Position numbers: made by a program. DNA of 7,135 nt, from assembly GCF_003334255.1 (NCBI RefSeq), contig NZ_QOWU01000096.1; one strand, 5' to 3'. This stretch comes from Escherichia coli. GTDB taxonomy: Bacteria; Pseudomonadota; Gammaproteobacteria; Enterobacterales; Enterobacteriaceae. Shown here in pieces: positions 1 through 3,000 of the stretch; the stretch's first letter is position 1; each line of letters begins with the position of its first letter.

Positions 1-3000
1 CTGGCGGTGCCTGTTGATAAGGCTGTTGAGCTTGTCAGGGATCGCAGTAAATTCGCGGAAATTTCGAAAAATTTCGGTTATTTCACGCCGAAGCAGGAGG
101 GGCTTTCTCTGAAAGATATTCAGAAAGAAGCCAGCCAGGTAGCAGCGGAAGCGATCAAGAACGGCGGTAATGCTCAGGCTGCGAGGGATGAATTTTTAGC
201 TGCGCATGGTTTACCGGAATATCAGCAGAAAATTCAGCAACAGAAATTTGAACAGCTTTTACAGAAGGGGCAGACCTGGGCGGAGGGCGATCCGGTCAAA
301 CTGGAGTTTGTCAAAGCGACTGCCGCCAATATGCCAGCCTTGCTGGAACCGGGGCGTGAAAAGGAACTGGAAATTTGGTACCAGAATCACCTCCGGGATA
401 AAAAAGCCGAACAGGAAAAAGCGAAGAATTATAGCGCTGCTGCATCAGCCGAAGAGATCAGAGGCTGGATGAAGTAAAGTTACGCGGCAGTAACGCGCTC
501 CCCGTTAATATCGTTCACTTACGCCCGACCATCGTGTCGGGCTTTTTTTTACTGGAGTCTGTATGGCTTTTTCAGATGAGCAGCGCCCTGAAGCGCAATT
601 GGGTAACCAGAACCGCAGCAGCCTGAACATTAAGCAGCCGGGAGAAAATTACTGGCAGGATTTTTTCAGCAACCCGCAGAATGCCATTGATCACAGCACA
701 TCGTTCAGCCTCGGTGATGTATTGCCAACAATGGGTAAAGGTTTCGCCCAGTCCGTCCGGGGAACAGGGGAGATGGTCCGTGGACTCGGTGATGGATTTG
801 TAAATAATCCTGTAAAAACGCTTGCCGGGTTGTCGTCTTTCATGACGGATGTTTACATGCCGCCTTCCTCCACGCAAAAGGAACTGGGCGCGCCACCTTC
901 TGTTGGAGATGCGATTAAAAACATTCCCGATGGAACAGGTAAAAACGCGGTCACTGATACTGTCGGTGAAGGTCTGAAAGCAACCGGTAAGGCAGTCAGT
1001 GATGGTGCCAAAGCCTCGGATGAATGGCTGACAGATCAGATGTCGCCGGGTGCTGTTCGTGCGCTGAACACGCCAATGAGTGAAGGCTATGATGATTCTG
1101 CGGTCTTGCTGACGAAGGGTGTAAACCTGATTGGTGCGCTTGTACCTGATCTGGTTGCTGGCGGTGTGGTTAGAAAGGTGGGACAGGTCGCACTGAAAAG
1201 AACGCTGACCGCCGGGCTGGAGAAAAAATACATCGCGGCAGGAGTGCAGCCGGAAAGAGCCACGGCACTGGCAGCAGAAGCTGTCGATAAAAAAATGACG
1301 GATTTCTTCCATGCGGGCCTGATCACCCATTCCACAGCCAGTGCACAGGGGCAGAGTGCAATGTCGGCAGCAGATGCTGTTCTTAATGCGGATTACGCTG
1401 AGCTGGCGCAGTCACCGAAATTTCAGCAGACGTTTTTGTCAATTGATGCAGATCCACAGCACGCACAGCTTACTGATCGCCAGAAAATGGACCTGGCAAA
1501 AGAGCGTGTTGCCGATGAGGTGCGCGCGCAGCTGGCAACCGATCCTGAATTGCTGGCTGTGAATGCCATGGCGGCAAAACTGGGTGACGCACAACTGTTT
1601 AATCTGGTGACACGAGGCACAGCGAAGACCGTTAAAAGCGGCATTGTCAGAAATGCCACGGAACAGGGCGTAATTAACGGGGCACAGAACGCCTATTCGC
1701 GCTATCAGGAAAACACGGCATTGCGTGAGACCGCCGGAATGGATGTGTCACCGTGGGAGGGCGTGGCTGACGCAACGATCGAAGGTGCAGCCTTTGGTGC
1801 TGCGATGGGGGCTCCATTCGGTGCGGTTGCCGGATATCGTGGCAGACGTCAGGCCGCAGAAGAAGCAGCCATGCGTGATGCTGAAACCGTGCAGCAGGAC
1901 GACGCAGCCCCGCAACCCGAACCGGTTGATCCGGTGGCACAGCATCGTGAATCCATGCAGGGGATGAATCGCGAGCAGCTTCTGGAACAGTATGCTGATG
2001 CGGATATGGCACATGAGGGAGACACGTCTGCCGTTCATCGCCGGGAAGCCGCCAGCCAGCTGTTGAATGAACTGGATGAACAGGCGAAGCGACAGGCGGT
2101 AATGGATGAGCTGAAGGCGAAGCCGCGCCCTGAACTGCTTGAGGAATACCGAAAACTCAGCCTGAAGGAAGGGCGTACTGATACTGAAGAGCAGCAGTTA
2201 CAGGCTATCCGTGATGTGCTTCGCCCTCAGCAGGAGGCCAGACCGGAGGCACAGCCACAGCCGGAAAATGCGGATGATGGCGACGGGAGTATTTACCCGA
2301 CGGTGCGGTTCCGCGATCCGGATGAAGTTCGTATTGAAATTAACGGGAGTGGTGCGTCCAGACCAGCAGAACGCATTGAAAAGGTGCGTCCGGACAACCG
2401 TTATTTCACGGATGAAAAAAGTGCTCTGGGGAGCGACGTTTTCCGCAATGCCAGCGCCACCGGCCTGAAACCGTCCGTAGTGAAGAAAGGCGAGAATCAG
2501 TATGCCGTTGAAATGGATAATCCTGCGTTCTCTGAAGATGTGGCAACGGAGACCATTAACACCCTGGCTGACGGAGAGCGTATTGCTGATGCTGAACCGA
2601 TGGAGCAGCCCGCGTTCATGCGTGACCCGCGATTCCGTGGTTTCACGGGGGATGATACAGAAGTGCAGGCCCGCCTTGCCCGTGGCAACGCGCCGACGGC
2701 AGAGGAGCTTGTACGTTCACAGATGGCTGAAGGTGATGCCGGTCCGACAGCACAGGAGTTAACTGAGCGTCCACGCCTTCCCGCTCCCGGCGATATTCAT
2801 CCCGGACAGGGATATCCGTTACCAGGAGAAGTGGCGCGTACGCCGGATGAAAATCAGGCCGGACGTGGTGGTCGTTTTACCACAACCGGTGAGGTGAAGG
2901 GCCAGAGTTTCCAGAAAGGACGTGCGCAGGCACCGGAAAATGCCGCTGGTCGCCAGGGGGAAATACTGGAGGGCGAACCGGTTCGTCGTGGTCTGCCGTC

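Follow-up and report, generated by a model that had tools for sequence, protein, structure and literature searches.

A conserved glycine zipper forms the last helix of an N4 gp50-like N-terminal domain in a giant polyvalent protein of Shiga toxin phages

Does a row of regularly spaced glycines near the N-terminus of a giant phage protein mark a segment that meets a membrane? The question is raised by a stretch of 7,135 nucleotides (nt) of Escherichia coli DNA (assembly GCF_003334255.1, contig NZ_QOWU01000096.1), referred to here as the window, in which a single frame stays open from nt 509 to the end, with the gene start at ATG 563. A (GxxxG)4 glycine zipper in this open reading frame (ORF) had been put forward, in a reading made from the sequence alone, as a possible membrane-insertion element. 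The analysis described here identifies the zipper as the terminal and most conserved helix of a putative delivery domain, which resembles the N-terminal domain (NTD) of the virion RNA polymerase (vRNAP) gp50 of phage N4 and heads a polyvalent giant protein of Shiga toxin (Stx) phages. The favoured interpretation, with a probability of about 0.5, is that the zipper provides a tight helix-packing face and, after ejection, helps the N-domain to engage and oligomerise at the inner membrane, from where a long linker would let the cargo domains reach the cytoplasm.

Translation of nt 1781–1837 gives EGAAFGAAMGAPFGAVAGY, with Gly at positions i, i+4, i+8, i+12 and i+16. The charged flanks that had been described are in place, ...ATIE before the zipper and YRGRRQ after it, and the earlier hydrophobic stretch LLTKGVNLIGALVPDLVAGGVV lies where the sequence-only reading had put it (Table 1). 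No other run of at least three Gly at i+4 spacing is present in the protein, and among 20,000 composition-preserving shuffles a run of at least five Gly appeared in 0.6% and a run of at least four in 7%. The segment follows the glycine zipper pattern, (G,A,S)xxxGxxxG or GxxxGxxx(G,S,T), in a register that is conserved in the homologs. This conservation was quantified in an alignment of 41 curated N-domains, whose identity to the query is 20–31% for 39 homologs and 62% for one. Gly occupies position 408 in 48% of the sequences, 412 in 97%, 416 in 100%, 420 in 85% and 424 in 80%, Gly416 being one of only three invariant columns in the whole domain. The tetrads read Gly / small / x / hydrophobic; charged residues are held to 0–2% at positions 409–425 (except 423, with 12%), and positions 426 and 428 are charged in 56–57% of the sequences, mainly as Arg or Lys. 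At the equivalent place most of the ~60 long homologs carry 4–6 Gly at i+4 spacing. Since the register is conserved across such distant homologs, the zipper is, as judged from these sequences, real and functionally constrained, and not a product of chance. Pfam gave no significant match to amino acids (aa) 1–900; this segment and the alignment drew only Gly-zipper_OmpA and Gly-zipper_YMGG, at non-significant E-values of 0.24–0.82.

The domain to which the zipper belongs revealed its closest relative at the level of profiles. A profile of the aligned N-domains matches the PDB sequences of N4 gp50 at residues 230–446 (hmmsearch, E 1e-9), and hhalign returned a probability of 95.9% for the N-domain against N4 gp50 and of 98.9% against 11 N-terminal segments of schitovirus vRNAPs (E 1.6e-17, 162 columns). 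The aligned part pairs query aa ~248–429 (nt 1304–1849) with N4 aa ~286–449 and runs through the zipper. Independent matches to N-terminal chunks of vRNAPs, and also of LPD proteins, were obtained with Foldseek against the predicted viral structures of BFVD. An S-P-x-F/Y-Q segment, an ExxEExxQ...QN helix, a DxxxGV loop and a Gly-rich helix are common to both profiles, and the ExxEExxQ...QN motif, which belongs to the helix preceding the zipper, is invariant in the schitovirus vRNAPs. In the zipper itself, Gly408, Gly412, Gly416, Gly420 and Gly424 align to N4 Gly428, Gly432, Ala436, Gln440 and Gly444, respectively. Among the schitoviruses Gly428 is conserved in at least 90%, Gly432 is invariant and Ala436 is conserved in at least 90%, which gives GxxxGxxxA; because these rungs are conserved, a three-rung zipper would be the ancestral form, extended by the LPD-type giants. 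When the full Stx protein and full-length N4 gp50 were compared pairwise with phmmer, nothing matched, so that only profiles bring out the relation, and Pfam matched neither LPD38 nor any other model to the C-terminal 1,200 aa of N4 gp50, which leaves the two proteins without a C-terminal link. By these profile comparisons the N-domain is homologous to the NTD of the gp50-type vRNAPs and, like it, stands at the N-terminus of a giant protein devoid of Cys.

This homology gives the domain a functional setting. For N4 gp50, the N-terminal region has been described as taking part in the protein's injection into host cells (Iyer, Burroughs, Anand, de Souza & Aravind 2017, PMC5512222). In an AF3 (AlphaFold 3) prediction the gp50 NTD has two helical subdomains, and helices that may span a membrane are placed at residues 224–278 (Bellis et al. 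2025, PMC12633501); on its own, the NTD is reported to enter nanodiscs, and it has been proposed that the NTD and gp51's C-terminal end form an inner-membrane complex that tethers the polymerase (PMC12633501). Neither gp50 nor its DEV counterpart gp71 contains cysteine (PMC11445570). Cys-free composition had also been claimed for the protein studied here, and it holds both for the in-window product (2,191 aa) and for the full-length ortholog of 2,789 aa encoded by phage PhiR12_3. The avoidance is extreme, with no Cys in 55 of the 59 giants (1,500–4,665 aa) that carry this N-domain and none in N4 gp50 (3,500 aa). Searches with the N4 N-terminal region by Iyer et al. 2017 (PMC5512222) recovered only N4-like phages, so the shared N-domain and its zipper lie outside the published domain catalogue; Pfam has no model for the shared domain, and a literature search found no paper describing the N4 link or this zipper. 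The homology of the N-domain of a polyvalent giant to the vRNAP NTD would therefore be previously unreported.

A closer look at the domain (~330 residues) was taken with an AF2 (AlphaFold2) model, whose mean confidence (pLDDT, predicted local distance difference test) is 73. The zipper forms the N-terminal half of a predicted continuous helix of 46 residues (aa 401–446), with block means of 78–87. It is preceded by a helix of 33 residues and joined to it by a short conserved loop, DPxxGV, and this predicted arrangement of helix, loop and zipper helix fits the layout of a folded helical hairpin. The preceding helix bears a conserved polar stripe, with the family consensus Glu368, Thr371, Glu372, Gln375, Tyr381 and Asn384, which in this phage reads Gln368, Ile371, Asn372, Gln375, Tyr381 and Asn384. 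As a separate observation, the Stx-phage clade has replaced both Glu residues of the stripe, by Gln and Asn, and the loop Asp396 by Ser. The first apolar stretch (aa 182–203) is conserved as well, with Trp182 in 34 of 39 non-gap sequences, Gly191 in 82% and Gly200 in 73%; its best 19-residue Kyte-Doolittle (KD) value is 1.57 in the query and 1.06 as the family mean, and the AF2 confidence of this region is low (block means 41–56). Foldseek found no matching fold for the N-domain in the PDB and, in AFDB50, family members only, followed by non-significant matches, several of them to integral membrane proteins. Single-sequence searches of the PDB with aa 1–900 and with aa 901–2789 gave no match.

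An exhaustive search of representative sequences with aa 1–470 retrieved 96 proteins, mostly as the N-termini of proteins of 2,000–4,700 aa, and a word-index search for homologs returned only close E. coli and Salmonella fragments. The cargo behind the N-domain varies: MuF_C with LPD38; an AcrIF11-like ADP-ribosyltransferase with a helicase and LPD38; or a methyltransferase with DdrB-ParB, LPD5, LPD1 and LPD39. Two weak matches were also recorded for aa 336–461 (nt ~1568–1945), one inside the DarB-like antirestriction family phrog_10089 (positions 484–605, E 1.7e-5) and one to the 'endolysin' family phrog_938 (E 0.0024). The hairpin-plus-zipper module may also occur away from the N-terminus in other giants.

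Genetic evidence comes from phage Sp5, in which the giant ORF corresponds to ORF80 (2,793 aa), and from which orthology extends to the 'LPD5 domain-containing protein' of 933W. ORF80 is one of nine essential late genes of Sp5, and its in-frame deletion leaves the heads and the packaged DNA normal and yields neither plaques nor lysogens (PMC5155283). Deletion of the neighbouring ORF79 (421 aa) behaves in the same way, infectivity being lost with DNA packaging intact (PMC5155283). A published assignment of Sp5 ORF80 to COG1483 and the AAA+ ATPases was considered and set aside, as no ATPase domain was found in Pfam scans of the whole giant ORF (L002 12563–20932).

How far the zipper itself meets a membrane is the point on which the evidence divides. 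It had been claimed that the N-terminal ~430 residues interact with or cross a membrane, as ejection proteins do; what stands of this claim is a distinct, conserved module of ejection-protein type, homologous to the N4 gp50 NTD and Cys-free, and its membrane part is the less secure one. An ejection or membrane-engaging function of the N-domain as a whole is well supported by the relation to N4, and a role of the zipper in engaging the host membrane during infection is plausible. According to the favoured interpretation, the phage head would carry the giant protein and release it when a cell is infected. Inside the head, the zipper helix would use its flat Gly/Ala face to pack very closely on the preceding conserved helix and give the hairpin. 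Once ejected, the apolar zipper would join the earlier apolar stretch in engaging the inner membrane and would self-associate through its Gly face, the Arg-rich cluster staying at the cytoplasmic interface. The protein would then be anchored where the ejection conduit ends at the inner membrane, or would help to form that end, and the linker and the cargo domains LPD5, LPD1, MuF_C and LPD38 would reach the cytoplasm.

In favour of membrane contact are the ~17 zipper residues that lie almost without polar or charged side chains ahead of an Arg/Lys cluster. Insertion was also gauged on two simple hydropathy scales (Kyte-Doolittle and that of Hessa 2005). On the latter the summed insertion energy of the zipper is positive (+7.5), and no other 19-mer within the first 900 aa is less unfavourable for insertion. 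Both its KD value (1.13) and this sum match those of segments of the N4 gp50 NTD (sums of +6.8 to +7.8) and of N4 gp52, which forms channels (+7.9).

Several observations weigh against this interpretation. The best 19-residue KD value of the zipper is a borderline 1.13, equal to the family mean (1.13), and no member reaches the classical transmembrane (TM) threshold of 1.6; the uncharged run, moreover, extends over only about 18–19 residues. The AF2 model places the zipper within a confident helix of a folded helical domain, which fits a purely structural role equally well. The predicted membrane helices of N4 (residues 224–278) align with the earlier stretch (aa ~180–240) and not with the zipper, and the N4 zipper loses its regularity after the third rung. 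Profile comparison of the upstream 420-aa and 83-aa families with N4 gp51 and gp52 found no homology (hhalign, with shallow profiles of four sequences). Literature searches found no virion proteomics covering the giant protein and none placing it in Stx virions; they also returned no cryo-electron microscopy structure of an Stx phage and no mention of a 'glycine zipper' in phage ejection proteins. N4 reportedly forms virions of normal appearance when gp50 is missing. Finally, an anti-tail-fibre antibody bound no particles of the Sp5 ORF80 mutant, on which ground the authors classed ORF80 as a tail-formation gene (PMC5155283).

The main rival, a tentative explanation and yet the most serious of the alternatives, is that the zipper is purely structural and serves tight intramolecular packing in a soluble helical N-domain, for instance so that the domain stays compact or refoldable on its way through the tail channel, with no membrane contact at all. 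The continuous helix aa 401–446, coming after the 33-residue helix and the DPxxGV loop in a hairpin layout, is what such a role would look like, and hydropathy remains under the TM thresholds in all members. DEV gp71-N, in addition, has predicted membrane helices and could nevertheless be purified from soluble lysates (PMC11445570). This solubility is of limited help in deciding: T7 gp16, for which TM regions are predicted, is obtained as a soluble monomer and yet can insert into liposomes in vitro (PMC8954989). Because these two proteins behave so, a soluble and monomeric N-terminal fragment, which the sequence-only reading had accepted as grounds for its own refutation, would not be decisive. 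Against a purely structural role, one would not usually expect the last, surface-exposed helix of a soluble domain to present ~17 residues almost free of polar or charged side chains with a conserved Arg/Lys cluster behind them. Nanodiscs do take up the homologous N4 NTD, and it is known of ejection proteins that they are soluble until ejection and act on membranes thereafter.

A wider form of the favoured interpretation, doubtful as a whole, would make the N-domain a universal, swappable delivery head, common to the N4-like vRNAPs and to the LPD-type giants of Stx-type and related podoviruses. After ejection, several copies of it would zip together via the invariant Gly face, with the polar stripe turned inward, into an inner-membrane pore for protein and DNA, that is, the channel core of an unrecognised class of ejectosome.

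The genes upstream of the giant gene bring in another alternative. A module of five genes precedes it in Stx phages and in three distant loci, with products of about 120–133, 200–224, 124–148, 77–91 and 420–500 aa, four of the five being Cys-free. The 83-aa protein, named 'bacteriocin' in phage ArgO145, ends in a long conserved Gly zipper of its own, NIGTGIGTGAAIGASVGGPVGAVAGAVIGGIAGSLF, which is more hydrophobic (KD 1.61), and the ~218-aa protein (ORF76-like) has a Gly-rich apolar tail. The module is likely an ejection-protein set, and its order by size, small hydrophobic, mid-sized and giant, is the same as that of N4 gp52-gp51-gp50. The zipper of the giant could then be a heterotypic docking helix, pairing with the Gly zippers of the 83-aa ORF78-like protein and of the 218-aa ORF76-like tail to build an internal core or ejectosome. 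This proposal draws on the recurrence of the module, on the conserved zipper of the 83-aa protein and on the shared lack of Cys, and deletion of Sp5 ORF76 lowers the efficiency of lysogenisation (PMC5155283). Unlike ORF80, however, ORF77 and ORF78 are not among the essential genes of Sp5 (PMC5155283), which makes it unlikely that the giant needs the 83-aa protein as an obligatory partner, and heterotypic docking as the purpose of the zipper is considered unlikely as well.

Much less probable still is that the N-domain is a tail or portal-proximal assembly component, in which the zipper would oligomerise a plug or core for tail attachment and would not engage a membrane. The DNA-filled heads of the Sp5 deletion particles and their failure to bind the anti-tail-fibre antibody agree with this idea, as does a weak and non-significant Foldseek likeness to tape-measure and minor tail proteins. 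The homology, however, points to the N4 gp50 NTD, which belongs to an ejected protein, and the cargo consists of anti-defence-type polyvalent modules whose expected site of action is the host cytoplasm; Pfam, as noted, did not confirm that ORF80 is an AAA+ ATPase.

The idea that the zipper has no specific function and arose by chance, or through low complexity, in a Gly/Ala-rich segment, to which Pfam Gly-zipper models match only with E 0.24–0.8, is effectively refuted by a shuffle probability of 0.006, by a register kept at ~20–31% identity with one invariant and one 97% Gly, and by the presence of the motif in schitovirus vRNAPs.

Behind the N-domain the giant protein takes on a different character. 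The full-length ortholog in PhiR12_3 has 2,789 aa, and the protein falls over its full length in phrog_616 (PHROGs), a family without an assigned function. The ~570 residues at aa ~431–1000 are 24–44% charged, with Pro up to 18%, and are probably a flexible linker between the N-domain and the cargo domains; they parallel the low-complexity linker of ~100 residues behind the N4 NTD and are much longer. Pfam scans of aa 1–900, 851–2050 and 1601–2789 detected no RNA polymerase (RNAP) module and found LPD5, LPD1, MuF_C and LPD38 instead, the last of these beyond the window, in the full-length ortholog. LPD38 has been listed as restricted to phage-type polyvalent proteins (Iyer et al. 2017, PMC5512222), and on account of these four domains the giant ORF is taken as a phage-type polyvalent protein in the sense of that work. 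Two HExxH motifs were seen besides, HEWFH at aa 1279 (nt 4397–4411) and HEIIH at aa 1546 (nt 5198–5212), which may mark zincin-type processing peptidase modules of the polyvalent protein. The NCBIfam model CLCA_X matches aa 1177–1432 of the PhiR12_3 ortholog below its cutoff (152 against 260 bits).

Table 1. Position of the features discussed in the text. Positions are nt of the window, except for the five-gene module, for which the loci (L) are named.
Feature	Position	Strand	Residues	Basis or remark
C-terminal part of the ~420-aa upstream protein, stop 475–477	1..477	+		ORF 7..477
Terminator-like GC-rich hairpin GCCCGAC...GTCGGGC, then T8	523..550	+		hairpin scan and sequence
Giant ORF, runs off the window end	563..7135	+		2,191 of ~2,789 codons inside the window
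Conserved N-terminal helical domain	845..1852	+	~95–430	homologs, 41-domain alignment, AF2
First conserved apolar, Gly-containing stretch LLTKGVNLIGALVPDLVAGGVV	1106..1171	+	182–203	41-domain alignment, hydropathy, N4 alignment
Helix before the zipper, conserved polar stripe	1631..1729	+	357–389	AF2 helix H263-295 (model numbering), columns of the 41-domain alignment
(GxxxG)4 glycine zipper GAAFGAAMGAPFGAVAG	1784..1834	+	408–424	translation, conservation, AF2, profile alignment
YRGRRQ basic cluster directly after the zipper	1835..1852	+		sequence and alignment columns
Long hydrophilic, charged, Pro-rich region	1853..3562	+	~431–1000	composition windows, no Pfam match
LPD5 domain	3698..4147	+	~1046–1195	Pfam PF18799, E 2.8e-45
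LPD1 domain	4628..4867	+	~1356–1435	Pfam PF18796, E 3.2e-23
MuF_C (PBECR-type) domain	5795..6064	+	~1745–1834	Pfam PF18819, E 1.2e-17
Five-gene module	L001 9343-12477; L003 5996-9065; L004 6918-9911; L005 6567-9748			synteny

The window matches 186 phage records, two of them at 95–99% identity and 184 at 90–95%, nearly all from short-tailed Stx-converting phages and their relatives. The closest are Escherichia phage PhiR12_3 (97%) and ArgO145 (Sepvirinae, 93%), and the window represents the right end of a prophage of the short-tailed Stx type, just before attR. Four E. coli records deposited as plasmids (NZ_CP133131 and NZ_CP124742 among them) also carry the gene at 523–7135, at ~93% identity; they are 50–212 kb long and non-mobilisable and may be phage-plasmids or mis-binned prophage contigs. 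The product encoded at the beginning of the window is the ortholog of ArgO145 gp45 and Sp5 ORF79 and is annotated as the neighbour of the giant gene in ArgO145 and PhiR12_3; this ~420-aa protein is also Cys-free. Between its stop codon (nt 477) and ATG 563 lies the terminator-like hairpin, a strong one (7 bp, 6 of them GC) that ends 13 nt before the ATG of the giant ORF, a position that is odd if both essential genes are co-transcribed.

Short-tailed Stx phages spread Shiga toxin genes, and their essential protein of 2,793 aa has so far been assigned only to 'tail formation'. An N-terminus of the N4 gp50 type gives this giant a concrete and testable role, and suggests that a single kind of N-terminal delivery module serves both the polyvalent anti-defence giants and the virion RNA polymerases. 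Gly412 and Gly416, the most conserved residues of the domain, are targets for mutagenesis, for which an established deletion and complementation system exists in Sp5.

Known systems offer several points of comparison. The Pfam families Gly-zipper_OmpA (PF13436) and Gly-zipper_YMGG (PF13441) show a motif of the same kind and are the only models that touch aa 405–432; they differ in consisting of small proteins of outer-membrane lipoprotein type, and the match is not significant. T7 gp16 and P22 gp16 are analogous in function only, as large last-ejected proteins that are soluble beforehand and whose apolar segments refold at the inner membrane; the first 900 aa of the giant match no PDB chain, those of the T7 core proteins included, and no PDB fold. 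Transmembrane glycine zippers are reportedly found in channel-forming proteins, such as the N-terminus of VacA, MscL and KcsA. With these the present zipper shares the GxxxGxxxG pattern, here with five rungs, and the small and hydrophobic residues with no charges inside, whereas it is less hydropathic than typical TM helices and its helix is a predicted one. In its overall build the protein resembles the phage-type polyvalent proteins, being a multi-domain giant with LPD5, LPD1, MuF_C and LPD38 that adjoins virion genes. The schitovirus vRNAPs (N4 gp50, DEV gp71) come closest at the N-terminus. They differ in their cargo, as the Stx giant has no RNAP module and carries LPD5, LPD1, MuF_C and LPD38; in the zipper, which runs in a regular (GxxxG)4-5 register in the LPD-type giants alone, N4 keeping GxxxGxxxA; and in the phages themselves, since schitoviruses are lytic and the host phage here belongs to the temperate Sepvirinae. 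What they have in common with the Stx giant is an N-terminal domain in a giant Cys-free protein with a long linker behind it, and ~160–215 homologous residues that include the ExxEExxQ...QN helix, the DxxxGV loop and the Gly-rich apolar helix.

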